From assembly GCA_963811105.1 (NCBI GenBank), contig CAWEPZ010000010.1:1-64000 (forward strand): a stretch of DNA of 64,000 bases, written 5' to 3'. Below the pieces are notes generated by a model. That model was not told the origin of the DNA and made no database searches. It saw only the letters and a list, made by a program, of their open reading frames with translations. The position numbers and the translations under genes are program-made. This DNA is from Candidatus Bathyarchaeota archaeon. GTDB lineage: Archaea; Thermoproteota; Bathyarchaeia; Bathyarchaeales; Bathycorpusculaceae. This document shows, piece after piece, positions 20,019 to 63,452 of the stretch; position 1 is the stretch's first letter; each line of letters opens with the position of its first letter.

Positions 20019-20337
20019 TAGAAAGCAGTTGCGCCGTCATCACTCTCCACTAATCTGGGTTGGCGAGCACTAAACCTGACTATGCTTATCTCATTTTGCG
20101 GCAACCAACTTTCCTCCGTTCTTGCCTTCGGCAGACGGAACATGACATTTGCAGACGCAACCAAAAAGCCCTCCAAAGCCTGTGAGGCAAAAGCAACCCA
20201 AAACAAGCCCGACGCTGAAAAGTGCAAAAAATACCTGATCATCTTCTATCAGACAAAGAATAATTAAGTAATTAGGCAGTAGTTGCGCCGTCATCGTTCT
20301 CTACTTATGTGGGGTTGGCGAGTACCTAAAGTTGTCT
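20019..20337 (+). repeat. Composite repeat X-linker-Y-X (sites X1, Y1, X2)
   Basis: X = AGTTGYGCCGTCATCRTTCTCYA-N6-8-GGGTTGGCGAGYACCTAAA; Y = GCCTTCGGCAGACG...TTTGCAGACGCAACC...TTCTATCAGACAA; the same unit is reverse-complemented at 55088-55386. Confidence 0.9.
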
Positions 20338-20453
20338 GCGCAGCATGTTTCATGCAATAGAAAATAATAATTAAGTCGCAACGAGCCATTTTTCATGCTC
20401 GCCAATAACCTGCTTGATGGTTGAAAAGAAATTGAGGAAAGTTTCTTTGCGGT

Positions 20454-20963
20454 TTATTTGTTTATGGCGATGTTGCCGGATGTGATTGGTGTTGGTTTCA
20501 TGGAGCAGTGTATTTGGCCATTTGGCTCGTAGAGTGTGATGCCGATTGTGTCTTTGGCTTTTGTGTTTGAGTCAAACGCTGTGATGGTGAATGTCCAGCC
20601 TTCTTGCCATGGGTTATTGTCCATTTTTACGGTGGCAGATCCAGTGAAGGTGGTTTGTAAACCTTTTTTGACTGATTCAACACTAAAACTCGCTATGGCG
20701 TTGCTTTTAATTATCATAAGGATTTGTTTGTCTTGCACGCAAACCAGGTGAAATGAGCCTTCGGGGCCATTTTTAGTGTCGAAGATGCTGAAATCAAAGT
20801 AATGCTTGTGAGTTATTCCTGATTCGTCATGGAGAAATACTCCTGCTCCAACAGCAAAAGATTTTTCGCAACTCTTGTTTGTTGGTTTTGCGTTTACTAT
20901 GGAGAGCGTCGCTGTGAGACTTAATATTATTACAATTGAGATGACTAAAGCTTTGCTTTTCAT
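20454..20963 (-). CDS. Secreted hypothetical beta-rich protein
   Basis: Signal peptide MKSKALVISIVIILSL; lies between repeat sites. Confidence 0.7.
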   Translation of the reverse strand: MKSKALVISIVIILSLTATLSIVNAKPTNKSCEKSFAVGAGVFLHDESGITHKHYFDFSIFDTKNGPEGSFHLVCVQDKQILMIIKSNAIASFSVESVKKGLQTTFTGSATVKMDNNPWQEGWTFTITAFDSNTKAKDTIGITLYEPNGQIHCSMKPTPITSGNIAINK

Positions 20964-21034
20964 TAAATTACCTCAGTTTTCTTATGTATGTTGATATAAT
21001 ATTGGTTTGTTGGTGGCAAGATACAGTTACAACC

Positions 21035-21183
21035 GCCTTTCAGCACACGAAACCTGACGTTTGCAGAGGCAACCAAAAAGCCTCCAAAGCCTATACAGCA
21101 AACGCAACCCAAACCTTCATGCACGCACGAAAACCCTGCTTCTTCTATCAGACAAAAAAATAAAGAATTAGGAAGTAGTTGTG
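21035..21183 (+). repeat. Repeat Y2 plus left part of X (X3, truncated)
   Basis: GCCTTTCAGCAC...TTTGCAGAGGCAACC...TTCTATCAGACAA...AATTAGGAAGTAGTTGTG. Confidence 0.8.
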
Positions 21184-21311
21184 AGAAGTTGCTGCTGCTG
21201 CCACTCGCTCCCTGCACAATAGTTGCAACAATCAACCCAACAAAAACTTCTTTTTAAAACGTCCAGAAACAATTATATTCTGGATTATCCAGATAACTTA
21301 GATGATCTGCA

Positions 21312-21584
21312 ATGTCAACAATCCTAGTAAAAAACCTGCCTGAAGAACTACTAAAAGAACTAAAACGGCTAAAAATAGAACTCGGCTGTAAAACCTGGGC
21401 AGACCTCCTATCAGAACTAGTCACCAGCGAAGAAACCCTGCTCAACGAAGAAAAAAATAGCGAAACCGAAATCGGCGTCAAAAACTTCCTAAACCTAAAA
21501 ACCGCAGTCTCAACCGAATGGAATAACAACCCAACCGTACTGCAAGAAACACGCAGGTCTAGACGACATGAAACAGCCAAGTAG
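21312..21584 (+). CDS. Antitoxin (VapB/RHH-like)
   Basis: MSTILVKNLPEELLKELKRLK; overlaps the downstream PIN gene. Confidence 0.75.
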   Translation: MSTILVKNLPEELLKELKRLKIELGCKTWADLLSELVTSEETLLNEEKNSETEIGVKNFLNLKTAVSTEWNNNPTVLQETRRSRRHETAK

Positions 21585-22014
21585 ACGCCTTACTCTAGAC
21601 TCCAACGTCCTTGTCGCTGCATTAAAAGCAGATGAACCTCACAGTGAAAAATGCGCACAAATACTTAGCAAGGTACCAAACAACTTCCAATTAGCTGAGC
21701 CAAGTATCATCTACCAAGAAGTGTGTGGGACTCTTGCCAGAAAAACAAACCTTGCCATAGCCAACATGGCAAAAAAGCAAATGGACCTTATGATTAATCC
21801 AAAACTGCTAACGAACTGTGACAAAACCCTATGTACCTCAGCATTTTGCTTGTGCTCAGAATATAAAATTTACACTATCGACGCAGTCTACCTACAGGTA
21901 GCTCTAACGAACAAAGCTATCATGGTTTCTCTTGACAAAGAAGACTTTGTAGAAAGACTTAAACAGAAAAAGTTGCCCATCGAAGTCTACAGTGTCTCGG
22001 ACTTTCCCTACTAA
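21568..22014 (+). CDS. vapC: PIN-domain toxin (VapC-like)
   Basis: LDSNVL, E, DAVYL and SLD PIN motifs. Confidence 0.8.
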   Translation: MKQPSRRLTLDSNVLVAALKADEPHSEKCAQILSKVPNNFQLAEPSIIYQEVCGTLARKTNLAIANMAKKQMDLMINPKLLTNCDKTLCTSAFCLCSEYKIYTIDAVYLQVALTNKAIMVSLDKEDFVERLKQKKLPIEVYSVSDFPY

Positions 22015-22393: not shown

Positions 22394-22457
22394 TAGAAAG
22401 TAGTTGTGCCGTCATCATTCTCCACAAACTGGGGTTAGCGAGTCCCTAAATCAGATT
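22394..22457 (+). repeat. Site X4
   Basis: TAGAAAGTAGTTGTGCCGTCATCATTCTCCA-CAAAC-TGGGGTTAGCGAGTCCCTAAA. Confidence 0.85.
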
Positions 22458-22549
22458 ACGAATTATCATGGAAAACATGTGTTCCTGCCCAGATATCAAT
22501 AGTGGGAAAACTTAAATTAGTGGAGTCATAATTTATTGTGGGAAACTCA

Positions 22550-22804
22550 ATGAGTGAAACAACCGCGAAAATAGATGAGAAAGGCAGAGTAATGATTCCC
22601 AAAAGCATCAGAAAGGCAGCCAAAATTAAGGCAGGAACATACGTTAACATCAAGGCAACAGACACAACCATAATAATAGAACACTCTGAATCTATAGCTG
22701 AAAAATATAGCGGTTTCTTCCAGATAGCTAAATGGCCTGAAGACTTGGATGAATTTATAGTGGAGGCAACTAGAAAATGGTGGACAAATCACGCCTCTAC
22801 GTAG
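22550..22804 (+). CDS. AbrB/MazE/SpoVT-family antitoxin
   Basis: KIDEKGRVMIPKSIRK motif. Confidence 0.85.
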   Translation: MSETTAKIDEKGRVMIPKSIRKAAKIKAGTYVNIKATDTTIIIEHSESIAEKYSGFFQIAKWPEDLDEFIVEATRKWWTNHAST

Positions 22805-23202
22805 ACGTAAACGTATTTGTCTACTGGCTTGGAAATCACCCAAAATACGGGCATGTAGCGTTGGACTGGATTAAGAAAATGGAAACCTCTCCACGAGGAG
22901 AATATGTTACGTCAGCTTTAACACTCTATGAAACACTAGTGATAATATGTGGCTTAACTGGCAAGAATCTGAAAGACAAGAACTTTGTGCAACAAGTCAT
23001 CAATCCGATAACGAGAATCAAAGGATTAGTTATTGAATCTCTTAGATCAGAAGACTTCAAGAAAGCTGCGGACTTGATGAATGAATGCAAACTCGACTAC
23101 GAAGACTCACTTCATCTCGCCGTAGCGATAAGAACGGGTGCACAAGAAATAATCTCAAACGATAAAGACTTTGATGCTACCCAAATCAAAAGAATTATGT
23201 AG
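22777..23202 (+). CDS. vapC: VapC PIN-domain toxin
   Basis: YVDVNVF, E, DYEDSLHLA and ISNDKDFD motifs. Confidence 0.88.
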   Translation: MVDKSRLYVDVNVFVYWLGNHPKYGHVALDWIKKMETSPRGEYVTSALTLYETLVIICGLTGKNLKDKNFVQQVINPITRIKGLVIESLRSEDFKKAADLMNECKLDYEDSLHLAVAIRTGAQEIISNDKDFDATQIKRIM

Positions 23203-23247
23203 ATAACTGCAAACGAAATATTCAATCTTAACTAAAAAGGCGAGCAA

Positions 23248-23337
23248 TTAGAAAGTAGTTGCGCCGTCATCGTTCTCCTGACCAGACCCGACGCTGCACT
23301 TGGCAAAAAACCCGGTATTCTTCTAGAGACAACAAAC
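23248..23337 (+). repeat. Left half of X (X5) fused at its spacer to the 3' part of Y
   Basis: TTAGAAAGTAGTTGCGCCGTCATCGTTCTCC followed by ACCAGACCCGACGCTGCAC...TTCTAGAGACAACAAAC. Confidence 0.75.
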
Positions 23338-23362: not shown

Positions 23363-23761
23363 TCAGTATATTTTGCACCATGTCGTTTTGAGGTTTTCGA
23401 TGTTCTTAAAGTGAGTATCATCTGAAAAAAGAGGGCACTGCTGAATTTGGGCTGTGGCTGCAATTACACTGTCAGCCATTGGAATTTGATGTTTATTTCT
23501 TAATTCAGCACTTTTTATTGCTATCTTGTAGTCAACGTCAATGACTTCAAAATCTCCCTGTATGGTGTTGCTTCTTAAGGTTGCAACGTCCTTACCTTCT
23601 TTTTTCAAAACGATGCGATGTATCTCATGAACTGTTAAAGATGAAACCATCCTTTCCTTTACTGACCTAAGTTCTTCCTTAAGTTTTCTAACAAATTCGG
23701 GGTTGTTTGAATAGAAGTACTCAACAAAAAACCGAGTGTCGTAGAGGCGTCTGTCAGGCAT
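23363..23761 (-). CDS. vapC: VapC PIN-domain toxin
   Basis: YDTRFF, E, MADSVIAATA and SDDTHF motifs. Confidence 0.88.
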   Translation of the reverse strand: MPDRRLYDTRFFVEYFYSNNPEFVRKLKEELRSVKERMVSSLTVHEIHRIVLKKEGKDVATLRSNTIQGDFEVIDVDYKIAIKSAELRNKHQIPMADSVIAATAQIQQCPLFSDDTHFKNIENLKTTWCKIY

Positions 23762-23987
23762 CTTCAGCCCTCATTTGGTCTAACAGCCTCTTTAATTCCT
23801 CTACATTAGCTTTTCCAGCGCCGCTTCCTGCGAGATCAAAGATGCTTGGGCGCTTTTTTATTACAATTCTACCTTCTTCCTCTATGACTTCTACTTTGGA
23901 GCTTTCTTCTATGCCAAACTTCCTTCTTAGCTTAACCGGGATGGTGATCTGCCCTTTCCTTGTAACTACACTTTCATTTGAAGTCAT
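23754..23987 (-). CDS. AbrB-family antitoxin
   Basis: VTRKGQITIPVKLRRKFGI motif. Confidence 0.88.
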   Translation of the reverse strand: MTSNESVVTRKGQITIPVKLRRKFGIEESSKVEVIEEEGRIVIKKRPSIFDLAGSGAGKANVEELKRLLDQMRAEDA

Positions 23988-24116
23988 ACTTAATCGAATG
24001 TACAACTAACAAAAAGTACTACTTAAGCGTTCATGCAGTTTTATGCAAACAAGTTTCTTTAACAGGGATTCAACTTTTCTATTCGCCTTTCTCAAAAAAA
24101 AGGCAATTAATTAGAA

Positions 24117-24420
24117 AAGCCAAAGAAACAGTGCTAACAATGGTAACTAGAGGATTTCGACTAGAACCAACTCTACTCGCTAGGTTAATTATCGAAATAG
24201 AAAAATATCAACTCAAAAAATAACAAATCAGCTACAAACCCAGCATAGCTCAAGTAAAACTCACAAAAGCCAAGGCGGCTGGATTAATGGAGAAACGTTA
24301 GTAAAAAAAGAAAAACCAGCTCAGTGTAGAAAGACCGTACACCAAAAAACAATCACTTTTTCTGCATTTTTTTTCTTATAAAATAACCATTTAATTAGGA
24401 AATATTAAGCAGTTGTGCCG
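24117..24420 (+). repeat. Near-identical inverted copy of the DUF3368 3' end and downstream DNA (53951-54253)
   Basis: Same KETVLTMVTRGFRLEPTLLARLIIEIEKYQLKK end plus ~190 bp of downstream non-coding sequence. Confidence 0.9.
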
Positions 24421-24595
24421 TCATCATTCTCCGTGCTTTGGAGTTGGCGAGCACCTAAACCTGACTATGCTTATCTCATTCTGCAGTAACTAGAGCACCC
24501 TTTCATTCTTGCCTTCGGCAGACGGAACATGACATTTGCAGACGCAACCAAAAAGCCCTCCAAAGCCTGTGAGGCAAAAGCAACCCAAAACAAGC
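24405..24595 (+). repeat. Site X6, linker and Y3 (truncated)
   Basis: Matches 20019-20205. Confidence 0.85.
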
Positions 24596-24817: not shown

Positions 24818-25036
24818 CTAGAGTGGACCAAGCCTAACCTCTACTACCTGATTATCTAGATTGCGCTTGCCGTCTTTGAATATGATGATTGTTAGTTTGG
24901 GTATTACTATTCTTCCGTCTTTGCTTATTCTGGATAGAAAACTCTGGGGAGGCTGCCATGCTCCAAGGATGCTTACGGTTACTTCTAAGATTTGAGTTGT
25001 TTCTAGCTTATAGTGCCATATGACATGCCTCTTCAA
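24818..25036 (-). pseudogene. 5'-truncated AbrB-like DNA-binding protein (paralog of 61329..61625)
   Basis: WHYKLETTQILEVTV..SFLSRISKDGRIVIPKL; flank 24595-24724 matches the reverse complement of 61700-61825. Confidence 0.75.
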
Positions 25037-25528
25037 GTATCTGACATTTTAAGCGGGTTTAAGAGTGTCTTTTTCAAGCAAATCAACGTTTACCCCTAGT
25101 TCATCCTTGAGGAAAAGTCAAGTTCGATAATTTTGAAGAGATCATCATTGTTTGGCTCGGAGAATGTTACTAAGACATCAAAATCACTTTTTTCAGTCTT
25201 CTTTTCTCACAAAAGAACCGAAAAGGTCAAGAGTTTTTACTGTAAAATTCTTTTTAAGAACTGGATTTATAGCCTTCAATCGACGTCTTATTTCTTTTAG
25301 CGACTTCATTTTCAAATAACCCTACAAAGAATCAACATAAAGACTTTGCAATGTAACACCTACCCGCTTGTCGAGTGTTGAAGAATTCAAGGCACTTAGG
25401 ATGCTGATGGAAATAGAGAAAGCGAATGTAAGCAAAGAAGATCAACCTTCAACGGTCCAGAAAAACCGTATGCCTAAAAATAATCAGCTCTTCTCCATTC
25501 TTCATTTTTTTATGGAAATAATTAAGAC

Positions 25529-25593
25529 TTAGAAAGTAGTTGTGCCGTTATCAATCTCCACAAATTGAGTTAGGCGAGCACCTAAACTTGACT
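25529..25593 (+). repeat. Site X7 (last site of the left cluster)
   Basis: TTAGAAAGTAGTTGTGCCGTTATCAATCTCCA-CAAA-TTGAGTTAGGCGAGCACCTAAAC. Confidence 0.8.
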
Positions 25594-25699
25594 CTGTTCA
25601 AAAACAATAACTGCAAATTGCCTACCATCGACGAAATTAAGCAGTAATCAGCCTAAAACGCTGCAAAGAATTCTAATCGTTTGTTGTCTGAAAAATATC

Positions 25700-25951
25700 T
25701 TATCGGGGAAATTCAATAATTCTAATTTTTGATTCAGCAGCTTTCTCAAAAACTTGAGAAATCAATGCACCTTCAATTCTTTTAACTTCAGCATCTTTTG
25801 CGCTTCTATTTTTGTGCTCTAAAAGGTGGTTTTGGATCGCTTGGTCCATAGCCTTCAAATCAGGCAAGAAGAGAATTTCATAGCCGCATTCACACTTTAT
25901 AATCAGCAAACGAGATTTTAGTGAGTGGTTGTACACTTTTAATTCAGTCAA
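25700..25951 (-). CDS. Small CxCG zinc-finger-like hypothetical protein
   Basis: IKCECGYEILFLPDLKAM..AI..H..EH; frameshifted paralog at 29433-29640. Confidence 0.65.
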   Translation of the reverse strand: MTELKVYNHSLKSRLLIIKCECGYEILFLPDLKAMDQAIQNHLLEHKNRSAKDAEVKRIEGALISQVFEKAAESKIRIIEFPR

Positions 25952-26864: not shown

Positions 26865-27518
26865 TTGTCAAAGAAATTAAGTCTTACCGATAATTCCACA
26901 ATTTTGTTTCAGGGCGACAGCATAACAGATGCAGGTAGAAAAAGCAATCACAACGGAGCACTTGGTGACGGATATGTAATGATGGCAGCATCATGGTTGT
27001 CTGCATTACTTCCAGAATATCACATGAAATTCTATAATCGTGGGATTAGCGGAAATCGAATTGGAGATCTAAGGCACCGTTGGAAAAAAGACTGTTTAGA
27101 TCTCAAACCCAATTTAGTTTCGATATTGATAGGTGTCAATGATCTCGGTTTACCTTGTTGGAAAAGCTCAACTCCCACTAAAAGCTTTCAGTCAGATTAC
27201 GCAAGCATTCTGGAACAAACTCAGCAATTAAGATGCCAAGTAGTTTTGCTAGAGCCATTTCTCGTTCAATCCAACGGGAACTTTCGTAAATTTAACGAAG
27301 AGCTAAACAAAAAAATAGAAGTAGTCAGAGAACTTTTCCGAGAATTTGATACCAAGCTAATTCCGTTGAATGATATTTTTATGAAAGCTTGCATAAAGCG
27401 AGGTTCTTCATTTTGGGCGTTTGATGGAGTACATCCAACCCTTGCAGGGCACGCTTTAATTGCACAATCATGGATTAAAGGCGTAATGGAGAACCCTGAA
27501 GCCTTTTTCAGGCAATGA
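26865..27518 (+). CDS. SGNH/GDSL hydrolase
   Basis: GDSITD, NRGISG, GVND and DGVHP motifs. Confidence 0.9.
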   Translation: MSKKLSLTDNSTILFQGDSITDAGRKSNHNGALGDGYVMMAASWLSALLPEYHMKFYNRGISGNRIGDLRHRWKKDCLDLKPNLVSILIGVNDLGLPCWKSSTPTKSFQSDYASILEQTQQLRCQVVLLEPFLVQSNGNFRKFNEELNKKIEVVRELFREFDTKLIPLNDIFMKACIKRGSSFWAFDGVHPTLAGHALIAQSWIKGVMENPEAFFRQ

Positions 27519-52688: not shown

Positions 52689-53248
52689 TTGAACAAAAAA
52701 TCCAACACATTAGCAAACGCAATACTCGTAATCCTTTTGATGTCTTTAACTATTCTACCATTAGTGCCATCTCAACTTGTGAAGGCTCAGGTAGCAACAC
52801 AGCAACCAACTGCAGGTCCTCTCCCCGCTGGCACAATTCCCAGCATTACAGTCGATACAATGGCTTTTCTTAGCTTTAGACCAAACCCAGTGGGAGTTGG
52901 GCAAACTGTCCTAGTGAATATGTGGGTTGAACCTCCAATTAATGTTGCCAGAGATTTAATTAGTACATTTCGCGTTACGATAACAAAGCCAGACACAACT
53001 GTCGAAACAATTGGACCGCTTAACTCCTACGGAGGCGACTCAACTCAATGGTTCGAATACAAAGTCACGCAGGTCGGTACATACAAACTCAAATTTGACT
53101 TTCTTGGAGAATACTATCCAGCTGGAAATTACTTAAACGGAATAATTGTAACGAACTCTTCAGGAACAGCCCTCGGTTCAGCCTACTACAAACCAAGTGC
53201 GACGCTGGAACAAAACTTAACAGTTCAAGAACTACAAGACTTTGCCTT
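52689..53248 (+). pseudogene. N-terminal part of the PQQ-like beta-propeller surface protein, split by the inversion
   Basis: AAGGAGA RBS, signal peptide, FLSFRPNPVGVGQTVLVNMW and YYKPS..LTVQE; frame continues into 18357(-) across TTTGCCTT. Confidence 0.85.
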
Positions 53249-53729
53249 TTTTTGTTTTTTCTTCTAAGGCAGATCTGAATGCTGCATTCATTGCCTCATC
53301 GACTGCTTCTTTGGCAACTTTACCAATAATTCTGCCCTCATTATCGCAACTACCGCAGATTTCAACTGGACAATCGTTACCGCAAGAACCGCAAATTTCA
53401 GTAGGGCAATCATTACCACATGAGCTGCATATCTCAACGGGGCAATCGTTTCCGCATGAACTGCAAATCTCAACCGGACAATCGTCAGCTACAACTTTCC
53501 GGCCAAACTCAGAGTTTAGCCATTTTTTGTATTCAGGCAGAGTTTTTTCGACCGCTTCATTAATTACTGACTGCAGTTTTTGGTAAATTTTAGGATCCAA
53601 TTTCTCGATAGGTGGTGTCTTGGCTATGATTTTAGTTAATCGTTCGTTGTCTGTTTGTGTGAGCTTTTTGGTTGGGGCTTTATTAGGGGCTTTTTTGGTT
53701 GGCTTTTTTGAACTTGATTTAGATGACAA
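53232..53729 (-). CDS. Cys-rich tandem-repeat peptide, putative RiPP precursor (original C-terminus at 18366-18413)
   Basis: Four 12-aa repeats DCP[VT]EIC[SG]SC[GD]N flanked by charged helical regions. Confidence 0.8.
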   Translation of the reverse strand: MSSKSSSKKPTKKAPNKAPTKKLTQTDNERLTKIIAKTPPIEKLDPKIYQKLQSVINEAVEKTLPEYKKWLNSEFGRKVVADDCPVEICSSCGNDCPVEICSSCGNDCPTEICGSCGNDCPVEICGSCDNEGRIIGKVAKEAVDEAMNAAFRSALEEKTKKGKVL

Positions 53730-53902
53730 AAAAAATCACTACCTTGTTTTGTTAAGAATCGTTTATTTATGCCTTTTTGAGGCTTCATTAAGTTGAACGG
53801 GTAATGTAACAAGGTTAAAAAGTTATTAAGATTTGTGTATCGATTTCTAACTTGCCAAAATAACTCCTCAGTGGTAAACACAAATTGAAATAAAAACTGC
53901 GT

Positions 53903-53965
53903 AGTCAAGTTTAGTTGCTCGCCAATCCCATGCCAGTAGAGAACGATGACGGCACAATTCCTTAA
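53903..53965 (-). repeat. Site X8
   Basis: Reverse complement TTGTGCCGTCATCGTTCTCTA-CTGGCA-TGGGATTGGCGAGCAACTAAAC. Confidence 0.85.
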
Positions 53966-54146
53966 TATTTCCTAATTAAATGGTTATTTTATAAGAAAAA
54001 AAATGCAGAAAAAGTGATTGTTTTTTGGTGTACGGTCTTTCTACACTGAGCTGGTTTTTCTTTTTTTACTAACGGTTCTCCATTAATCCAGCCGCCTTGG
54101 CTTTTGTGAGTTTTACTTGAGCTATGCTGGGTTTGTAGCTGATTTG

Positions 54147-54677
54147 TTATTTTTTGAGTTGATATTTTTCTATTTCGATAATTAACCTAGCGAGTAGAGT
54201 TGGTTCTAGGCGAAATCCTCTAGTTACCATTGTTAGCACTGTTTCTTTGGCTTCAGTTTCACTGATTAGGCCTTTTCTAAGGGCTGATATGAAAACATAG
54301 ATTGTCCCCTTTACTTTTAGCCCCCAAGCCTGTGCGAATGCGCGTCCAGCTGATTCATCCATAAGCAAAAGTAATTTCATTTCACGAGCCAAAACTATTG
54401 CTTGAGCTTCTCCTGAGTGGATGTCAAAGCAATGTTCAGAGACCTTTTGAAGAATGCTTTGGTCTTTGATGTTTAGTTTGGAGAGCTTTATCCAGCCTTC
54501 ATTTATGCATTCTTTTATGGTCTGCGCATCGGAGAATCCGCCTTGTAATCCTTTTTCTACGGCTTCTATGTACACTTCTTGAGGTATAATGACTTCCACA
54601 AAAAGGTCTTTTAGGAGAGTTATTTTACCCGCTTTTGCAAGCCATATAAGGGGGCTGGTGTCTGAGATTACAGGCAA
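54147..54677 (-). CDS. DUF3368 PIN-like toxin
   Basis: ISDTSPLI, GEAQAI..A, MDE..GR and GTI motifs. Confidence 0.85.
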   Translation of the reverse strand: MPVISDTSPLIWLAKAGKITLLKDLFVEVIIPQEVYIEAVEKGLQGGFSDAQTIKECINEGWIKLSKLNIKDQSILQKVSEHCFDIHSGEAQAIVLAREMKLLLLMDESAGRAFAQAWGLKVKGTIYVFISALRKGLISETEAKETVLTMVTRGFRLEPTLLARLIIEIEKYQLKK

Positions 54678-54989: not shown

Positions 54990-55087
54990 AACCCACACGT
55001 AATACATTATATATCAAATGTAATTATATATATTTTGCCACCGTTTTGAGTAGAGATAAAGAGGCAAAAACTCAATGACTAAAACGC

Positions 55088-55386
55088 AGTCAACTTTAGG
55101 TACTCGCCAACATCCCATGCCAGTAGAGAACGATGACGGCACAACTACGTTCTAATTACTTAATTATTCTTTTGTCTGATAGAAGATGAACGGGTGTTTT
55201 TTTGTGTGTGCAGCGTCGAGTTTTGTTGAACAGGCTCTGGAGATCTCTTTGGTTGCGTCTGCAAATGTCACGTTTCGTCTGCCGAAGGCAAGAACGGAGG
55301 AAGGTTGGTTGCCGCAAAATGAGATAAGCATAGTCAGGTTTAGGTGCTCGCCAACCCCATGACAGGAGAATGATGACGGCACAATT
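55088..55386 (-). repeat. Composite X-linker-Y-X (sites X10, Y4, X9)
   Basis: Reverse complement of 20019-20337 with substitutions and a small deletion. Confidence 0.9.
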
Positions 55387-55631
55387 TTTTTCATTTATTT
55401 TACATTTCTTGACAAAATTAGAGATGAAGGCAAGTTGATTGTTGTCTAGTGTACGACTTTTCCGAGATGTTGTGGGGTGGTCTTCTTGTTTACCAAGGCT
55501 TTTCTAATTATGCAGCAACCTTGGCTTCTGTTGTAATAATGTTTCAAGTAAGAGACTCTTGTTCGAAATTAAGGATTTGTCTGAAAAGAATTAAAAGGCG
55601 CTTAATCAGTCTATTACTCAGGTGCATTCAG

Positions 55632-56771: not shown

Positions 56772-59700
56772 TTAAGCGGGTCGATTTTTGGAGCGCCTTC
56801 TCAAGGTGACTCCAACTGCTAATGCTATCCCCGCAAGTCCTATTCCTGTTCCGGCGATGGCGGCTGTTTCTGCTGTGTTCAAGCTTTCCTTCAGGTTGCC
56901 AATTTCGTTTTGCATCTTGTCCAACGACGAGTTCAGGCTGATTCCAAGACCTCCGAGTTGATTCTGAAGCGATGATTGCGAAGAATTTAAACTGTTAAGA
57001 CTGTTATTTAGATTGTTGGTCTGATTCTGCAGGGCTAATTGGGTAGAACTCAAAGAATTTAGGCTGTTTCCAAGACCTCCGAGTTGATTCTGTATGTTTG
57101 ACTGGGTTGAACTTAAGGTGTTTAGTGTTGATTGAGTCGAATTTAGTTGGTTCTGGATGTTTGACTGGGCTGAACTTAAGGAGTCTATTGTTGATTGAGT
57201 GGAATTTAATTGGTTCTGGAGGAATATTGTTGAATTTGCGCTTGTGTTTATTCCGTCAGTTTGAGTTGCAACGGTTTTTAGGGTGTAGGTTCCATCTGGA
57301 TAGTTGGCTGTTGGGATGATGAAGCTGAGTGTGCCGTTGTTGTTGGATGTTTGAATGGTTTGGTCGTTGAGGTATGTTGTGACTGTGTTTATGTTGTTTC
57401 CGGAGATGGTTATTGTTACGTTTAGATCTCCTTTGAGGCTGGTTCCGCTTTGGGGCGTTAGAATTTGAATTGTAGGTGGAGCAGGGTTGATTGTTTGGTA
57501 GCTTGAAGCAGTCATTGAAATGGTCGAGTCTACAAGAGTGATTGCATTTAGGTTGGTATTAACTAGGTTTATGCTGCTGTTTGAGGCAACAATGTTTCCG
57601 CCGCGTACAGCTTGTAGCGTTAGATTTGAATTATTGATGTTTAGTGTTCCGTTTATTATCGAGTCAGATATGACAATGTTTGTTGACTGCACCGTATTTG
57701 ATCCCAAGAAGAGGTCTTGAGTTAAACTGGCTGGTCCCGTTATGTTGACTGCGTTTAATGCTAAGCCCCAATTTTGTTGAAATAATGTGATGACCTGGTT
57801 AGAAACGTAAACATAGGGTTGAATCATGAAGCTTTTCTGGGCAGAGAGCATGGTAGTTGTGGGTACTCCGTCGTATGAAATGCCTGTGACATATGCTTCG
57901 TATGGACCCGAGTAGACGAATGAATTGGCGTTAATTGGCGATAGTGCGCCTGCATTGTAGGGGGAGGGCAGTTGTATGTTTCCTATCCATTTGTTAAGAG
58001 TTGAGTTAAACGATAGGGGAATTAATTCGAAATTCTGGTATTCCGTGCGCATTATGGTCATGAAGGTATTTTGCAGTTCTTGTGGGTAAATAATCGCTGT
58101 GTATTCGCCTTGGGTTACTTCTTGGCCGTTGGAATATTGTATGTCTGCAATGATTTGTGCTGTTTGTCCCATGAAAAGAGTGGAAGGCGAAAGCGTTATC
58201 AATGGGGTTATAGTGGCGTTTGAAACCCAAATATTGCTATAGAATAAGCCGGCTAAGGTGTATCCGAGTGTTAGTGAGCCATAGTTTGCCTGCAGCAAGA
58301 TGGTATACAATCCTGATGGTGAATTAATTGGTACTTGGAGGGAACCACTAATTTTTGATGATTGGGAAATTAGTGCTGAACTGGCTACAACATTTCTTGT
58401 GGCATTGACTAGGTAGGCAGTTATACTGGAGCCTGCTGCAATATCTGAACCCACTGTGTTGCCGGTGTCAAAAGAGGGAGTGTCTGCAATGTTTGTAGGC
58501 GCGATTGGTGAAGTAATGATTGTTAGGGATTGACCCGGTGCTATCGAGGCGGGTTCAGCAACTACCTCAGGTTCGATTATACTTGTTTGTAGGTAGATGC
58601 CATTGGTGAATGGCAAAAATCCATATGTGTTCCCTTGCAACATCAAATTTATGGGGCCTGCGGGATAGGGCAATGTTAAGTTTGCAGCTGTTACGTTTCC
58701 AAAGGTCGTTAGGTTCGCAGGGACAAGAGTTACTGTGTCGACAGGGTTGTAGGAGTTGCTTAGAATCGAGTAGGAGTTAACCTGCATAGTTTGGTTGCTC
58801 AAGGGAGCTGGGTTGCCGTCAAGGTCTGTGGATGCAACGGCTACTTGTAATCCGTTTGCCGTTGTCCAGGGGTTTGTGGGAGTGGGGGTTAAGAAAGTTG
58901 CGAGGTAACCTGCAAATATTTGAGCAAACCCTTCTCCGAAAAGACCCGCGGAAGAGCCGTTGACGTCAATGTAGGCTACTCCAGATTGTTGACCCATCAC
59001 CAAGGAGGCATTCCAGGTTCCTGAGGTTATGTCGAAAGTCAAAGGTGTAATAATGGATGTTCCAGTGAGCGTGATGAGTTTGGTTGAAAAGTTCCCATTG
59101 GTAACCACGTTGTTTCCATTGTAGATGTAGGCAGAGATGTTGATTGCTTGGTTGGGAGTAAATTCTAGTTGTGGTTGCCCTGAGGCGTTATAATAATCTA
59201 TGTATATGTCGAGGCTTGGTTGCGTGAGTTGAGTGTTATATAGGGTGTTTATTTCGCCGATGTTTGGGGCGCCCCAGCCTGTTACGAGGTTGTAGCCATA
59301 GGACGCGGTCCATGGAATATTGTAGCCGAATGTTATTGGATTATACGCTTTGGCGTATAGGTTTGCGTTGTTGCCTAAATTGTAGAGGAAAGGATTGAGT
59401 AAGCCAAGAGGACCTCCTGATGACTGCGCAATTAGAGTGAGCAGACCTGAAAGAGCTTGAACCGAACCCGATGTACCCCCCACTACCATTAGGGATCCGG
59501 AATTTATTATGAAAATTCCTGGGTTAACGCCTGCTTGCAGTGAAAGGTCTGGTTCCATTCGTCCATTTGGGTACGATGGAGGGGTCTGTTGATTCTTTTG
59601 ATACCATGGTTTTGGCTCAAGGAAACTTACTCCTCCCCCGCTTCCGCCTGCGTTTACGCCATTTGGCACATAGCCTGGATTGGACCATGCAGTTTGAACA

Positions 59701-60926
59701 AAACTATTAGTTCCGTTTGGTTGGGTGTAGAGGTAGGTTTGGGTTCCTCCAGTACTTGTGACGTAGGGTGAGTCATCTGGATATCCTAAATTGCCTGCGG
59801 GACCGGAACTATAACCGCTTCCTCCCGCGTCCCCTGAAGAACACAGAAAAGTTATTCCTTCAAGTGATCCCAGCATAAAGTAGAGATCTGGGAGAAACAT
59901 GTTGAAATAGAATAGTTGCCCTCCCACCAGTGAGTACAGCCATTCGGGTCCTATGGAGAAACTCATCGACAGAGTTGTGACACTATCGTCGTCTACTATG
60001 GTGGCGATGTCGGCTGCAAACGGCAGGGCTCCGGTTGCAACGTACATGTTAATGTCGGCGTTTGGAGCCATCGCATGAGCCATTTCGACGTCAAGGGCGA
60101 CTTCGGTGCTCCATCCGTTCCCAACCCCAAGGTTAGGGTTGTATGGCACTATGGGGGTTATCACGAAGTTTGGATCTGGGAAACCGAATGTCTTATCGAA
60201 CTGAATTAAGTCCTGAGTCACTGTAGGAGATCCGAAGAAATCAAGCATACCTATTGTCTGGCCTTCACCTTGAAAGCCTTGGGTATACAAAGATGTAGCA
60301 TTGTAAACCTCTTGCAAATTTTTCGTTGAGAAACCGCCCTGAGTATAAGTTATGTTAGTGCCCTGCGTCATTGGAGAAAGATTTGCGTACCGAGGTTCAA
60401 CCATAAGTGAGGTAATATTGGAGGCAATGAAATGAGCTTCATTGAACACCGAATTTCCTTTGGTCATATAGTAGGAGTCAATTCCGTTTGTGTACATGTT
60501 TACATTAGCGCCAAAATACTGCTTAACCTGAGCTGCAGAAGCCTGAACAACTATAATCGAATCCATAGAATTCATCAAAACAGGTAAGCCCATGCTATGG
60601 AGGGTTAGGAGCATTGAATTGAATTTGGTCGTTGGCAAGAACTCCTGCTTGATCTGAGAGGGAGTTAAGAAATGTCGATACAGAGCAGAAGATGGATCCG
60701 ATACTTGCACTAATAATGAACCCAAAACATCGACGTTTTCCAGCGGGATCGCGATGTTTACTAGAACTGCAAGATCCCCAGGTGCTTGACCTTGCTGAAC
60801 ATAACCTGGAAGGGGAGTAACTGGGTTATAAGGAGGATAAGAGGTGCTTGCGGCGGCTGAATACAAGCTTCCCAACGGCATGATTACAAGCAAAATTACC
60901 ACAAAAATAACATAAAAAGGCTTCAT
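56772..60926 (-). CDS. Secreted, membrane-anchored S53 (sedolisin-like) peptidase
   Basis: Signal peptide, prodomain, EVALDVE, SSGDAG, GGTS and YNLVTGWGAP; C-terminal coiled-coil repeats and TM. Confidence 0.88.
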   Translation of the reverse strand: MKPFYVIFVVILLVIMPLGSLYSAAASTSYPPYNPVTPLPGYVQQGQAPGDLAVLVNIAIPLENVDVLGSLLVQVSDPSSALYRHFLTPSQIKQEFLPTTKFNSMLLTLHSMGLPVLMNSMDSIIVVQASAAQVKQYFGANVNMYTNGIDSYYMTKGNSVFNEAHFIASNITSLMVEPRYANLSPMTQGTNITYTQGGFSTKNLQEVYNATSLYTQGFQGEGQTIGMLDFFGSPTVTQDLIQFDKTFGFPDPNFVITPIVPYNPNLGVGNGWSTEVALDVEMAHAMAPNADINMYVATGALPFAADIATIVDDDSVTTLSMSFSIGPEWLYSLVGGQLFYFNMFLPDLYFMLGSLEGITFLCSSGDAGGSGYSSGPAGNLGYPDDSPYVTSTGGTQTYLYTQPNGTNSFVQTAWSNPGYVPNGVNAGGSGGGVSFLEPKPWYQKNQQTPPSYPNGRMEPDLSLQAGVNPGIFIINSGSLMVVGGTSGSVQALSGLLTLIAQSSGGPLGLLNPFLYNLGNNANLYAKAYNPITFGYNIPWTASYGYNLVTGWGAPNIGEINTLYNTQLTQPSLDIYIDYYNASGQPQLEFTPNQAINISAYIYNGNNVVTNGNFSTKLITLTGTSIITPLTFDITSGTWNASLVMGQQSGVAYIDVNGSSAGLFGEGFAQIFAGYLATFLTPTPTNPWTTANGLQVAVASTDLDGNPAPLSNQTMQVNSYSILSNSYNPVDTVTLVPANLTTFGNVTAANLTLPYPAGPINLMLQGNTYGFLPFTNGIYLQTSIIEPEVVAEPASIAPGQSLTIITSPIAPTNIADTPSFDTGNTVGSDIAAGSSITAYLVNATRNVVASSALISQSSKISGSLQVPINSPSGLYTILLQANYGSLTLGYTLAGLFYSNIWVSNATITPLITLSPSTLFMGQTAQIIADIQYSNGQEVTQGEYTAIIYPQELQNTFMTIMRTEYQNFELIPLSFNSTLNKWIGNIQLPSPYNAGALSPINANSFVYSGPYEAYVTGISYDGVPTTTMLSAQKSFMIQPYVYVSNQVITLFQQNWGLALNAVNITGPASLTQDLFLGSNTVQSTNIVISDSIINGTLNINNSNLTLQAVRGGNIVASNSSINLVNTNLNAITLVDSTISMTASSYQTINPAPPTIQILTPQSGTSLKGDLNVTITISGNNINTVTTYLNDQTIQTSNNNGTLSFIIPTANYPDGTYTLKTVATQTDGINTSANSTIFLQNQLNSTQSTIDSLSSAQSNIQNQLNSTQSTLNTLSSTQSNIQNQLGGLGNSLNSLSSTQLALQNQTNNLNNSLNSLNSSQSSLQNQLGGLGISLNSSLDKMQNEIGNLKESLNTAETAAIAGTGIGLAGIALAVGVTLRRRSKNRPA

Positions 60927-61119
60927 TAAAACAGCTCCAAATTCGAAAAATTCAAACTCAAATTCTGACTCATCTGTATCATTCTATTCAGAACCTCATG
61001 TTTCAAAATATGTTTCAAATTCATCTCAAAGATCATAAAAGCTTTTTCCTAATTCAATCTGTTAAAAAGAAAAAAGATAAAGAAAAAGCATACATTTTAA
61101 GGATTCAAGAATAATTGAA

Positions 61120-61306
61120 GTGCTCGCCAACCCCATATTAATGGAGAATGATGACGGCGCAACTGCTTTCTAATTCTTTATTATTTTTTTGTCTGATAGA
61201 AGTAGCAGGGTTTTTGGCGTGCATTGAAGGTTTGGGTTGCGTTTGTTGTTAGGCTTTGGAGCTTTTCGGATGCGTCTGCAAACGTCAGGGTTCGGCTGAC
61301 AAAGGC
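61120..61306 (-). repeat. Y6 plus site X11
   Basis: Reverse complement ...TTCTATCAGACAA...AATTAGAAAGCAGTTGCGCCGTCATCATTCTCCAT-TAAT-ATGGGGTTGGCGAGCAC. Confidence 0.85.
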
Positions 61307-61328
61307 TAACTGCGGAGGACTATTGTAG

Positions 61329-61625
61329 TTGCCGTTAACTGAACGCGTCACATTCAAAACAAGACTGCAGCGAGGCAATCGAGTGCAGGCTCCAAAATAC
61401 GTCAGATGGAACTACAAACTAGAACCAACTCAAATCTTACAAGTAACCGTAAAAATCCTTGGAGCATGGCAGCTTCCCCAGAGTTTTCTATCCAGAATAA
61501 GCAAAGACGGAAGAATAGTAATCCCCAAACTAACCATCGCCATATTCAAAGACGGCAAACCCAATCTTGAATATAATGTAGCCGAAGTATGGCTTAGGTC
61601 ACTCTATTTAATGCGATTCGCCTAA
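61329..61625 (+). CDS. AbrB-like double-domain DNA-binding protein (MPLTE family)
   Basis: FKTRLQRGNRVQAPKYVRW...SRISKDGRIVIPKL; GGAGG RBS; fragment copy at 63207-63290. Confidence 0.7.
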   Translation: MPLTERVTFKTRLQRGNRVQAPKYVRWNYKLEPTQILQVTVKILGAWQLPQSFLSRISKDGRIVIPKLTIAIFKDGKPNLEYNVAEVWLRSLYLMRFA

Positions 61626-61857
61626 GTTTTGCTATCATTCTCTACATATTTTCTAGAATACATATATTGATTAAAGTGGAAAGGCATAGAGGGTATTCAT
61701 TGAAATAAGTCCAGATAGGTTTTCAGATAAACTGTTTCGATTGTTATTTTACATACCTTCGCAATTATATTGATTAAGTAGTTTAATAGAAGAAGACAAG
61801 CTTTGCTGCAAAAATTTTTGTAAAGCCTGTTTTGGGTTACTTTGCCTTTAGGGTTGG

Positions 61858-62376
61858 TTAGAATTCTGTTTTTTCTATTAATTCCATAATCTTTGCGTAG
61901 CTTTCGAGGCTGCATCGCCAACCAGCAGAAACCATATCGTTTACTGCTAGCTTAGCCTGCTCTTGTGAGATGATTTTCTCAAAAACAGCTCTAGCCAAAA
62001 TGTACGGTGTGCCTCTATAATTGATTCGGTACACCTTCGCTGTTTTTCTAGCCACTTCATCATCAATAACTGCCAGCGCATCAAATTCTTTTGCTAATGC
62101 TAAAACCTGAGCATCCGCAATATGAAGCCCACGCGTCAAAGTTAACTGAGACAGAAACGCCTTATCTTTGGGTTCACATAGCTTGAAAACGCCTCTATCG
62201 AACAATTTTTCCAGAGCAATTGCGTCTGGAACACCCTTGAGCTTGCCTTTGTCTACAACTTCTTGCTTAACTAGCGGAGACGTCAACTTTTCTGCTTTTA
62301 GTTTCTCAATAATATTGCTTAATCCAGCTTTGGAAAGGTAAATCAAAGGTGTAGAATTGAAAACTAATGGTTTCAA
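61858..62376 (-). CDS. DUF3368 PIN-like toxin
   Basis: FNSTPLIYL, AD..VLALA, IDDEVARK and GT motifs. Confidence 0.82.
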   Translation of the reverse strand: MKPLVFNSTPLIYLSKAGLSNIIEKLKAEKLTSPLVKQEVVDKGKLKGVPDAIALEKLFDRGVFKLCEPKDKAFLSQLTLTRGLHIADAQVLALAKEFDALAVIDDEVARKTAKVYRINYRGTPYILARAVFEKIISQEQAKLAVNDMVSAGWRCSLESYAKIMELIEKTEF

Positions 62377-62747
62377 TTTTGGTTGGCCGCCGATGCTTCG
62401 CTGAACTCTTTAGCTACATCTTCGGGGGTATATCTGACCCATTCAATGTTGTGTTGCTTAACCAAATCGGCAAACTCCCAAAGAGAGAGTTTTGCAATAT
62501 CTGCTGCTTTAGCGAAAGTTGTTTTTCCTTTCTGCAGAAGGTCCAGTGCCGTTTGTTTTCTCCATTCAGTGATGCCTATTTCGAGAAGATTTCTGACGAC
62601 TGTCGCTTTATCTATTTTTTCTGTTTTTATGATTTCGAGAATTTCTTTTTCTAATTCAGCTGGAACTCTGACGGCTAAAGGTTTGAGGGTCAACACAACC
62701 ACAGTATACAATAGATGTCGTTTGCATACATAAACTTTTTCGGCCAA
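62373..62747 (-). CDS. UPF0175-family antitoxin (true start probably near 62690)
   Basis: AVRVP...DKATVVRNLL...KAADIAKLSLWEF. Confidence 0.82.
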   Translation of the reverse strand: MAEKVYVCKRHLLYTVVVLTLKPLAVRVPAELEKEILEIIKTEKIDKATVVRNLLEIGITEWRKQTALDLLQKGKTTFAKAADIAKLSLWEFADLVKQHNIEWVRYTPEDVAKEFSEASAANQN

Positions 62748-63054
62748 CCACTAAATAATTCAGCTCTAAATCTCCGATGGTGAAAAAATTACACTGACAA
62801 AAAATCTACGGTTACCTGCGGTGGTTGTGGTGCCTGATAAAAATAGGAAGGAACTTACCCCCAAATGAGCCACATCCTTGCGACAAATACGGATGTTCAA
62901 GAGAAGCCAAATACCATCTGGGCACCAGCTACTATTTTGATGATAAAGCGGTGAGTTATTTTAGAGAAATCGCAGACAAATGCCGCCAAGAAGGGTTTAT
63001 GTTAATTGAGGTTTGGCGCAGCTTGACATCTAAGTTTATATTTTGGAGGGTTTG

Positions 63055-63452
63055 TTGTCTGATAGAAGATGAACGAGTGTTTTTTGTGTGCAGCGTCGAG
63101 TCTGGTTTGGGTTGGTTTTGTTAAACAGGCTCTATAGATCTCTGCGGTTGGGTCTGCAAACGTCAGGGTTCGGCTGACAAAGGCTAACTGCGGAGGACTA
63201 TTGTAGTTGCCGTTAACTGAACGCGTCTCCTTCAAAACAAGGCTGCAGCGAGGCAATCGAGTCCAAGTTCCAAAATACGTCAGATGGCACGGGCTTTGGA
63301 GAGCTTTTGGGTTGCGTCTGCATATGTCAAGTTCCGTCTGCCAGAGGCAAGAGCGGAGGGATGTTTTATTTGCCGTTAAATGAGGTAAGAATGGTCAGGT
63401 TTAGGTGCGCGCCAACCCCAAACTATTGGAGAATGATGACGGCATAACTATA
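63055..63452 (-). repeat. Y7, AbrB-like fragment, partial Y8 and site X12
   Basis: Reverse complement AGTTATGCCGTCATCATTCTCCAA-TAGT-TTGGGGTTGGCGCGCACCTAAAC at 63393-63452. Confidence 0.85.

Follow-up and report, generated by a model that had tools for sequence, protein, structure and literature searches.

Gene-cassette platforms are known mainly from integrons, which are defined by the integrase IntI and its attC sites, the latter having the layout 5'-RYYYAAC ... GTTRRRY-3' over 57-141 bp and being recognised as folded single strands with extrahelical bases. Integron cassette arrays, and arrays without an integrase (CALINs), occur in bacteria and have been reported in 75 archaeal MAGs, including Thermoproteota (Ghaly et al. 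2022, PMC9668308). In the pdif, or Xer-dependent, modules of Acinetobacter plasmids, modules that often carry toxin-antitoxin (TA) pairs are bounded by sites in alternating orientation, and a host-encoded recombinase acts in trans; dif sites consist of two 11-bp inverted arms separated by a 6-bp spacer (PMC2958812). Successive integration could give tandem direct sites, as for IMEX arrays at dif. REP/BIME elements with RAYT and IS200/IS605-derived PATEs are short extragenic imperfect hairpins with a conserved 5' flank, a strand-specific structure, and a possible orientation bias.

Here, we examined a 64,000-nt stretch (the window; positions 1 to 64,000 of contig CAWEPZ010000010.1, C10) of a Candidatus Bathyarchaeota archaeon genome (GCA_963811105.1, G000). 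A preliminary description had identified ten near-complete and two half copies of a quasi-palindromic non-coding site, X, usually linked to a second repeat, Y, and punctuating TA-rich cargo, and had inferred an undescribed archaeal gene-cassette system whose recombinase lies outside the window. That observation was borne out, with X present at all 12 places, whereas the interpretation was only partly supported. The left arm of X, X_L (AGTTGYGCCGTCATCRTTCTCYA, up to 3 mismatches), has 11 matches in the window and the right arm, X_R, has 8, with 0 expected for each in 100 dinucleotide shuffles. An nhmmer profile built from 76 copies placed all but one of the 12 copies (Table 1), the exception being a half copy that retains only AGTTGTG plus its upstream flank, and located a 13th copy just outside the window at C10:64470-64543. 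Y is also real, with partial cores in addition to the tabulated copies. Six TA pairs, the pro-kumamolisin (S53-type) protein, the protein with a signal-like N-terminus and, from the proposed peptide/radical SAM operon, the radical SAM gene were confirmed by Pfam or by reading.

Table 1. Features of the X-punctuated arrays in the window (positions in the window; profile scores are from the 76-copy nhmmer search).
Position	Strand	Feature	Support
18353..18354		Left breakpoint of the ~35-kb inversion; right breakpoint is near 53237; 8-nt inverted microhomology AAGGCAAA	
18438..19838	+	Radical SAM gene; lies between the two X clusters once the inversion is undone	PF04055, 9.8e-23
20019..20095	+	X copy 1, followed by Y	62.9 bits; X_L 1 mismatch
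20070..20260	+	Y: decayed AbrB2-like leader and first codons, read on the - strand; an 'empty' unit between two X copies	Repeat families; X-Y alignment; origin of Y
20272..20345	+	X copy 2	62.4 bits
20454..20963	-	Cargo A: 169-aa protein with signal-like N-terminus, no Pfam family; 92% identical copy at C3:107171-108025	
21166..21183	+	Half X (upstream flank plus AGTTGTG only), preceded by a Y core at 21039-21160	
21312..22014	+	Cargo B: 90-aa ORF plus PIN toxin; 97% identical copy at C3:115641-116884	
22394..22466	+	X copy 3; variant ...TTAGCGAGTCCCTAAAT travels with cargo C	nhmmer profile
22538..23202	+	Cargo C: MazE/AbrB antitoxin plus PIN toxin; 94% identical copy at C3:114762-115656, where it lies before B, not after	
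23247..23280	+	Half X (left arm only) joined to the tail of a Y	28.6 bits, profile positions 1-34
23363..24005	-	Cargo D: PIN toxin plus MazE/AbrB antitoxin	
24117..24410	+	Truncated duplicate of the end of the DUF3368 module (inverted copy of 53960-54253, 98%); homology stops at the 5' edge of X	
24403..24479	+	X copy 4, followed by Y (24437-24595)	73.6 bits
24818..25036	-	AbrB2-like small gene (72-aa ORF), member of a multi-copy family	
25529..25600	+	X copy 5; last of cluster 1, followed by the GDSL-type gene at 26865-27518 as in relative G012	nhmmer profile
53890..53967	-	X copy 6	64.2 bits
54147..55007	-	Cargo: UPF0175/RHH antitoxin plus DUF3368 (PIN-like) toxin	
55075..55155	-	X copy 7	62.3 bits
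55160..55343	-	Y ('empty' unit between X copies 8 and 7)	
55318..55393	-	X copy 8	74.4 bits
55641..56109	+	Cargo: 70-aa ORF (no family) plus ParE toxin	
56772..60926	-	Cargo: 1384-aa secreted protein with pro-kumamolisin activation domain and Ig domain	
61113..61173	-	X copy 9	60.1 bits
61329..61625	+	AbrB2-like small gene, intact (98 aa), with Y-like leader at 61254-61306	
61858..62747	-	Cargo: UPF0175 antitoxin plus DUF3368 toxin	
63380..63451	-	X copy 10, followed by Y (63288-63422), which abuts a 5' fragment of an AbrB2-like gene (63207-63290)	nhmmer profile

X is about 80 bp long and strand-polar, with a weakly conserved A-rich tract, then AGTTGYGCCGTCATCRTTCTCC, a variable centre, and TTGGCGAGCACCTAAA(C/G)YTGAYT; the two arms are near-invariant. 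To test if X forms arrays elsewhere, as would be expected of a cassette system rather than of scattered MITEs, we searched other contigs, genomes, and metagenome sequences. G000 has 22 profile hits, with 12 on C10, 8 in a second array on contig C3 (103-118 kb, all +), and 1 each on C11 and C13. A related genome, G012, has 23 copies within 48 kb of its contig C1, all on +, while a close relative, G065, has 12 on C29, all on -, and 5 on C57, all on +. Copies are co-oriented in all 24 metagenome contigs carrying X and in 47 of 48 sequences with two or more copies. The one exception is the contig examined here, which is explained by the ~35-kb inversion proposed in the preliminary description. This inversion was confirmed, since the loose end, at window position 18354, of a contig from another sample matches window positions 53207-53236 on the minus strand with 1 mismatch, and the two pieces of a split PQQ/Ig-domain gene (16377-18353 on -, 52689-~53237 on +) read open when joined. 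Undoing the inversion puts all X copies on one strand. The site is also conserved across species, with 45 full copies in Bathyarchaeota MAG records and 0-4 mismatches of 23 in X_L of G012; for comparison, an epimerase gene shared by G000 and G012 is 84% identical in protein and about 80% in DNA columns.

The cargo is modular and mostly comprises type II TA pairs, with some surface-glycan genes, proteases, and unknowns. Of 150 array ORFs, 28 matched PIN, 9 MazE, 7 UPF0175, 7 DUF3368, 5 RHH, 4 NTP_transf_2, 4 VapB, and 3 HepT. Modules occur in different orders and beside different neighbours: C10 runs A-B-C-D, while C3 has A ... C-B, with blocks 92-97% identical that end at 'ttagaaagtAGTTGYG', and G065 has B ... 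D ... A-C at 88-99% identity. Among 135 copies of X, 25 pairs share only the upstream flank and 9 share only the downstream flank. At one locus, the epimerase-flippase spacer, there is no X in genome G001, a solo X in G012, and X plus 1.6 kb in G000. The switches between modules fall in or at the edges of X, although not at one nucleotide; they lie at its 5' edge, inside it, and at its 3' edge, a pattern that fits homologous recombination within an 80-bp shared linker at least as well as one precise crossover. The region also shows rearrangements that do not use X, namely tandem duplications of 7 kb and 1.5 kb in G012, truncated X copies cut at three different lengths, and the inversion at an 8-nt microhomology.

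In contrast to the proposal that Y is a second site, we found that Y is the 5' leader, Shine-Dalgarno sequence, and first ~10 codons of a decayed AbrB-like small gene on the opposite strand, with the same leader preceding intact homologues in genomes without X. Y is therefore degenerate cargo, the commonest 'empty' unit, and not part of the machinery.

No dedicated recombinase was found in our searches. There are 16 PF00589 (tyrosine recombinase) matches in G000, none of them on C10 or C3. In G001, G002, G003, G012, and G023, none flanks an array, and the only one inside an array is a 162-aa fragment in G002. Serine, Y1, IS110, and Y2 families (PF00239, PF01797, PF01548, and PF04986) do not track X across genomes and are not adjacent to the arrays examined. 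No circular cassette was seen, as 0 of 24 metagenome contigs have terminal repeats, and no viral contig carries a full X.

Compared with integrons and CALINs, the arrays share co-oriented, imperfectly palindromic sites separating short self-contained modules, TA-rich cargo, module order that differs between arrays, sites that are more alike within a lineage, and, in most arrays, no adjacent integrase. However, as the preliminary description had noted, X lacks the attC layout: 16 kb of array contains 0 RYYYAAC...GTTRRRY pairs of 57-141 nt on either strand, and none touching an X, against 12 in the other 48 kb. X has GTT at its 5' end and AAC at its 3' end, the reverse of attC, and its arms are near-invariant in sequence across species. 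No IntI was found. An imperfect hairpin with a 4-nt and a 1-nt bulge can be drawn, and the mean MFE of X with DNA parameters is only -4.7 kcal/mol, no better than shuffles. X resembles pdif sites in having two conserved arms around a variable centre and modules that often carry TA pairs, but, as also noted previously, it lacks the dif layout. The distance between the conserved blocks is 10-14 nt in 75 copies rather than 6, and the arms are poorly complementary, with the 11-mers either side of the centre matching in 5 of 11 positions by our reading of the consensus. All sites are direct rather than alternating, and no link to XerA or dif was shown. X shares with REP elements and PATEs a short extragenic imperfect hairpin with a conserved 5' flank, a strand-specific structure, and a possible orientation bias, but it is confined to a few arrays rather than dispersed, and modules move along with it.

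We favour, with moderate confidence, the explanation that X is a non-coding inter-module linker punctuating chromosomal cassette arrays in a group of Bathyarchaeia, in which modules are gained, lost, duplicated, and permuted by recombination in or at X. Because all copies are direct repeats, an exchange between two X copies would loop out the intervening modules as a circle carrying one X, which could re-enter at any other X in the same polarity. Our data demonstrate the element, its clustering and co-orientation, its extreme conservation across species, the modular cargo, and permutation with switches at X, whereas the role of X as the cis site of exchange, and the identity of what catalyses it, are inferences. 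Within this explanation, we consider a trans-encoded, still unidentified site- or structure-specific recombinase only slightly less likely than the host's homologous recombination using X as portable homology. It remains possible, although doubtful, that some Bathyarchaeia carry a platform functionally equivalent to an integron but built from unrelated parts, with X playing the role of attC and a recombinase or nuclease of a family not yet linked to cassette capture acting on it in trans to move TA, surface-glycan, and protease modules between arrays and between species.

Among the alternatives, a role for X as RNA is unlikely but has the most support. Each copy could be a small promoter-plus-5'-hairpin unit, or a processing or stability signal in an array-long transcript, with module shuffling a by-product of homologous recombination between these repeats. 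With RNA parameters, the X strand folds to a mean of -13.2 kcal/mol against -9.0 for the opposite strand and is the more stable strand in 70 of 74 copies, with mean z of -1.58 and -0.31, respectively. The consensus has two U.G pairs that would be C.A on the other strand, with variants that are U-A or C-G. An A-rich, TATA-like tract at -27..-1 is weakly conserved over 111 copies, whatever the upstream module, and about three quarters of G012 cargo lies on the X strand by our count. However, a search of Rfam 15 found only a tRNA in the window at gathering score, with a best E-value of 1.3 over an X-Y-X stretch, and pairing was not above shuffled controls (91.9% against 91.7% of cells paired). 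Roughly half of the cargo in G000 lies on the opposite strand, whereas an RNA signal for the cargo should follow gene orientation; mixed cargo strand with constant X polarity argues against a role tied to each cargo transcript.

We consider it less likely still that X is a tiny selfish element of the REP, PATE, or MITE kind, inserting in one strand orientation as IS200/IS605-type elements do and accumulating in a permissive island, with the 'cassettes' simply the genes between insertions. The solo X in G012, the occurrence of X before and after a flippase gene in G012, G023, and one metagenome contig, the absence of a 449-bp stretch holding the X at 25538 from contigs of two other samples, and the strictly uniform orientation are consistent with this idea. 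Conversely, no Y1 (IS200/RAYT; PF01797) transposase was found in G000, G001, or G012, all of which carry X, copies are confined to 2-4 loci per genome (20 of the 22 in G000 lie in the two arrays), we saw no target duplication or terminal inverted repeats beyond the weak internal dyad, and whole modules, not X alone, move between arrays. That the arrays are ordinary CALINs is very unlikely despite their TA-rich, co-oriented composition and the archaeal precedents (PMC9668308), given the lack of RYYYAAC...GTTRRRY pairs in the 16 kb of array, the reversed polarity, and the lack of a tyrosine recombinase on C10 or C3. Similarly remote is the possibility that X and Y are fragments of one protein-coding gene. 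Both strands carry short ORFs through X-Y, X_L on the opposite strand reads, by our reading, ...ENDDG(T/A)T(T/A)F followed by a stop that is TAA or TAG in most copies, and Y does hold the start of an AbrB2-like ORF. However, column entropy shows no 3-periodicity in X or Y, centre lengths of 10, 11, 12, 13, and 14 nt break any frame across X, most X copies have no Y and no upstream start, and no conserved ORF spanning X in most copies was seen.

Collectively, X is a real, undescribed cassette-array element. These arrays have the same logic as integron arrays but a different, sequence-conserved site and no linked integrase, and they occur in an abundant, uncultured archaeal class. If X is a true recombination site, it points to a second, independent route to cassette capture in Archaea, and the X profile would offer a handle for finding the mobile gene pool of these organisms in metagenomes. 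If host homologous recombination does the work, X would be a case of a 'portable homology tag' kept conserved by selection on cassette mobility. Either way, X marks hypervariable TA and glycan islands that current annotation leaves blank.

To test if the repeats noted in the preliminary description are real, we searched the window for both arms of X, the non-coding site of about 80 bp. The left arm (AGTTGYGCCGTCATCRTTCTCYA, up to 3 mismatches) occurs 11 times and the right arm 8 times, while none is expected in 100 dinucleotide-preserving shuffles. A profile built from 76 copies placed X at all ten near-complete positions named in that description and at one of its two half copies, whereas the second half copy keeps only the upstream flank and AGTTGTG. 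Y, the repeat described alongside X, is also real. Pfam searches confirmed six toxin-antitoxin pairs (PIN with MazE/AbrB or a small partner, DUF3368 with UPF0175, and ParE), as well as a 1384-aa pro-kumamolisin-type protein and a radical SAM gene. The preliminary observation therefore held. Its interpretation, an undescribed archaeal gene-cassette system in which X and Y are the repeated sites and the recombinase lies outside the window, was supported only in part, as detailed below.

The inversion invoked in the preliminary description to co-orient the copies was also confirmed. Contigs of another sample stop matching at the left breakpoint, where the loose end matches window 53207-53236 on the minus strand with one mismatch; these contigs carry the uninverted junction. 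A PQQ beta-propeller/Ig-domain gene is split by this inversion of about 35 kb and reads open when the pieces are joined. The ends share an inverted 8-mer (AAGGCAAA), rather than an X copy or an IS. Undoing the inversion puts all 13 copies of the contig, including one just outside the window, on one strand in a single array of about 18 kb that ends at a GDSL-type gene, as does the array of the relative G012. We considered whether the GDSL gene is a fixed array anchor, but it was found next to the array in the source genome (G000) and G012 only; of five further genomes, only the close relative G065 has it, on another contig.

Features of the arrays and of the surrounding sequence. Positions are those of the window unless a genome or contig (C) of G000 or a relative is named; L numbers denote individual loci.
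Location	Strand	Feature	Observation
11037-11115		tRNA-Arg	Only tRNA of the window
11406-11494 and 13843-13931		Two 89-nt stretches	75% identical; probably the starts of paralogous genes; near the tRNA
16377-18353 and 52689-53267	- and +	Split PQQ beta-propeller/Ig-domain gene	Second piece, as joined, is 52689-~53237
18353/18354 and ~53237		Inversion breakpoints	
21166-21183		Half copy of X	
23247-23280		Half copy of X	Placed by the profile
24818-25036	-	AbrB2-like ORF family	
25249-25697		449-bp stretch containing X(25538)	Skipped by one contig in each of two other samples (25248/25698); joint has 4 letters that fit both sides; an indel polymorphism that includes an X copy
25700-25951		ORF	No Pfam or NCBIfam match
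30424-31580		Four tandem copies of a 287-291-nt unit	62-72% identical; related 108-nt pieces up to 32428; probably a repeat-domain protein gene
53232-53729		ORF	No Pfam or NCBIfam match
61329-61625	+	AbrB2-like ORF family	
62825-63124		ORF	No Pfam or NCBIfam match
63207-63290	+	AbrB2-like ORF family	
C10:64470-64543		X	Outside the window
C10:68750-69028		AbrB2-like ORF family	
C3:103-118 kb	+	Second X array of G000	8 profile hits
C3:109265-109547		AbrB2-like ORF family	
C3:109703-113917 (L001:14704-16001, L002:1-2914)		851-aa ORF with a DUF5906 domain (416 aa scanned), with 145-aa and 234-aa ORFs of no family beside it	Inside the C3 array; may be a remnant of an integrated replicon
C3:113925-113976		Divergent X	Bounds the DUF5906 region
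C3:118124-119175	-	Two adjacent ORFs (162 and 160 aa)	Directly after the last X-Y of the C3 array; by eye alone, resemble a split transposase with an HTH
C11:452180-452455		AbrB2-like ORF family	
G065 C57:4838-6043 and C29:27056-28468 (L151, L150)		IS110-family and IS66-family transposases	Inside the X arrays; IS110 copy 98% identical to G000 C2:74175-75234 and starts about 160 nt after a degenerate X
G012 C1:17.7-31.2 kb and 7.6-10.9 kb (L006, L007)		Tandem duplications	A ~7-kb block of several modules duplicated; a 1.5-kb unit (AbrB2-like ORF, 103-aa ORF, RHH-PIN pair) present three times

We next examined the distribution of X. The source genome (3.49 Mb in 15 contigs, with the window at C10:1-64000) has 22 profile hits: 12 on C10, 8 on C3, one on C11, and one weak one on C13. 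A 236-nt X-Y query found matches in 6 of 36 other genomes of the genus and in none of 24 genomes of other genera of the order. An exact 19-mer scan of one genome per species returned 101 loci, in which 45 copies carry a full X, all in records titled Candidatus Bathyarchaeota or Bathyarchaeia; the bacterial hits and all 15 viral hits lack the right arm and are chance matches. A two-arm pattern identified 24 metagenome contigs. Annotated X-bearing genomes number about 20 MAGs, against about 30 X-free congeners. Arrays are large and uniform in polarity, with 23 copies in 48 kb on contig C1 of G012 (all on +), 12 on C29 (all on -) and 5 on C57 (all on +) of G065, and 12 DNA-query matches on C9 of the relative G066 (all on +). 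Overall, 47 of 48 sequences with two or more copies are co-oriented, the exception being the inverted window contig, although these sequences partly overlap the same contigs and are not 48 independent cases. Because the relatives are kin, counts across them are likewise not independent.

Over 80 distinct copies, the two arms of X are at least 90% invariant at most columns, while the 10-14 nt between TTCTCC and TTGGCGAG vary in sequence and length. Conservation continues for about 15 nt after CCTAAA, and a weak A-rich tract covers -27 to -1 whatever the upstream module. The arms can pair as GTGCC-GTCA-[TCAT]-CTCCA / TGGRG-TGRC-G[A]GCAC, where two consensus pairs are T.G with variants T-A or C-G. 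However, pairing was not above shuffled-column controls (91.9 against 91.7% of cells), and only 4 cells change on both sides, such that the structure is compatible with the data but not proven. With RNA parameters, the X strand is predicted to fold better than the opposite strand (-13.2 against -9.0 kcal/mol, 70 of 74 copies), while with DNA parameters both strands are weak (-4.7 and -4.2 kcal/mol). X is not coding, since column entropy has no 3-periodicity and the centre lengths break any frame, and no Rfam family matches. A C/D-box sRNA reading of the opposite strand, which has an AUGAUGA ... CUGA spacing of about 50 nt, was rejected because the internal boxes are absent and the CUGA part is missing from most copies. 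Ideas of a tRNA fragment, ORB, or K-turn were likewise dropped on inspection of the sequence.

In contrast to X, Y is not a second site. On the strand opposite X, Y carries GGAGG, a TTG start about 10 nt later, and codons LPL(N/T)E..., which match the start of a 92-98-aa ORF with two '...G(R/N)(I/V)x(I/V)PK' motifs that we call AbrB2-like by eye, as neither Pfam nor NCBIfam names it. This multi-copy family of ORFs of about 95 aa has a conserved leader of about 150 nt and up to 10 copies per genome. It has matches in 23 of 41 genomes of the genus, many of them without X, where it is dispersed, which led us to reject the AbrB2-like protein as an X-specific partner. From our reading of the sequences, members in X-free genomes are preceded by a leader that shares an 18-nt stretch, TTGTTTTGGGTTGCTTTT, with Y. 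Y is therefore the leader and first ~10 codons of a decayed member of this family, joined to X, and represents a degenerate cargo unit. The conserved leader may itself be regulatory or mobile.

To survey the cargo, we assigned Pfam families to 150 non-redundant ORFs of at least 70 aa inside arrays of G000, G012, G065, and the relative G001, leaving out six further ORFs; the ORFs were picked greedily rather than called with a gene finder. Among the top 25 of 52 families, the tally was PIN 28, MazE 9, UPF0175 7, DUF3368 7, RHH_1 5, NTP_transf_2 4, VapB 4, and HepT 3, and also contained epimerase, glycosyltransferase, NUDIX, and trehalose-synthesis genes. Ten larger ORFs checked separately gave IS66 and IS110 transposases in G065, a DUF5906 protein in C3, and beta-propeller and beta-helix proteins. 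Pfam and NCBIfam searches gave nothing for the 169-aa secreted protein. Distant relatives of the DUF5906 protein are encoded at 12 viral loci, none of which has an X hit at E<=10. In G012 and the relative G023, a UDP-GlcNAc 2-epimerase and a Wzx-type flippase are each bracketed by X, and in G023 a 30-kb glycan cluster lies between two X copies. Cargo lies on either strand while X polarity is constant.

We then asked whether modules have been exchanged at X. Within the source genome, C10 carries modules A (secreted protein), B (90-aa ORF with PIN), C (AbrB with PIN), and D in that order, while C3 carries A, then other modules, then C followed by B. Block identities are 92, 97, and 94%, and block ends lie at 'ttagaaagtAGTTGYG' or at the 3' end of X. 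In the close relative G065, where other shared genes are 91-98% identical, the same modules recur at 88-99% identity in the order B ... D ... A-C. Among 135 distinct copies with flanks, 25 pairs share only the upstream flank and 9 share only the downstream flank. The centre of X is stable when both flanks are homologous, with 6 of 7 such pairs listed being 95-100% identical over X, although one of those pairs is a chance bacterial match. The centre differs in most pairs that share only one flank. Exchange therefore happens on both sides of the centre. Some switches are at the 5' edge (A|B, C|next, the 24117-24431/53939-54253 pair, and G065 copies at 13332 and 28998), some are inside X (G065 9284), and some are at the 3' edge (G065 8619, and C3:105802 against L067:1284). 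At one locus, the epimerase-flippase spacer, there is no X in G001, a solo X in G012, and X plus 1.6 kb in G000.

Excised or circular products were not detected among assembled contigs. When assembled contigs of four sequencing runs, which cannot show rare junctions, were compared with the window, nearly all joints linked the left arm of one X to the right arm of another with different centre letters; these are other X copies of related organisms cross-mapping, not excision products. Only the 449-bp deletion and the loose ends of the inversion were usable. None of the 24 metagenome contigs has terminal repeats.

A search for recombinases by family (PF00589, PF00239, PF01797, PF01548, and PF04986) identified none that tracks X, and no recombinase gene was found beside the arrays examined, although IS110-family and IS66-family transposases sit inside the arrays of G065. 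PF00589 has 16 matches in G000, none on C10 or C3, and in five relatives none flanks an array. G000 has no serine recombinase, Y1 transposases are missing from G000, G001, and G012, and IS110-type genes are missing from the relative G002 and from G012. The single Y2 gene of G000 has no counterpart in G001, G002, G012, or G023. A tyrosine recombinase acting in trans remains possible, because every genome has several; candidates are the XerA-like protein at C2:524021 and the 400-490-aa integrases on C14, C6, C8, C9, and C11.

The logic of these arrays is that of integron arrays or CALINs, which are reported in Archaea (PMC9668308). However, the defining attC layout is absent, with 0 pairs in 16 kb of array against 12 in the other 48 kb, X has the opposite polarity (GTT...AAC), and no IntI is linked. 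X also lacks the 11-6-11 layout of dif/pdif sites (PMC2958812). Its copies do not show the alternating orientation of pdif modules. REP/RAYT and IS200-type elements fail on dispersal and on the enzyme. Among the records listed in our literature searches, none described such arrays in Archaea apart from attC-type integrons.

The spread of switch points, the tandem duplications in G012, and X copies cut at three different lengths fit homologous or illegitimate recombination in a repeat-rich island, and the G012 array is recombinationally active beyond exchange at X. Conversely, three features are more typical of a site recognized by a protein: two near-invariant arms around a free centre, a strict polarity that is independent of gene strand, and conservation exceeding that of a shared enzyme gene, which is 84% identical in protein and about 80% in DNA columns between G000 and G012. 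While the site, its polarity, and the permuted modules come directly from sequence comparison, the role of X and the nature of the catalyst are inferred. A dedicated enzyme and host homologous recombination are almost equally plausible as the catalyst, with the latter slightly favoured. Collectively, and with moderate confidence, these findings lead us to propose X as the cis element at which modules are exchanged.
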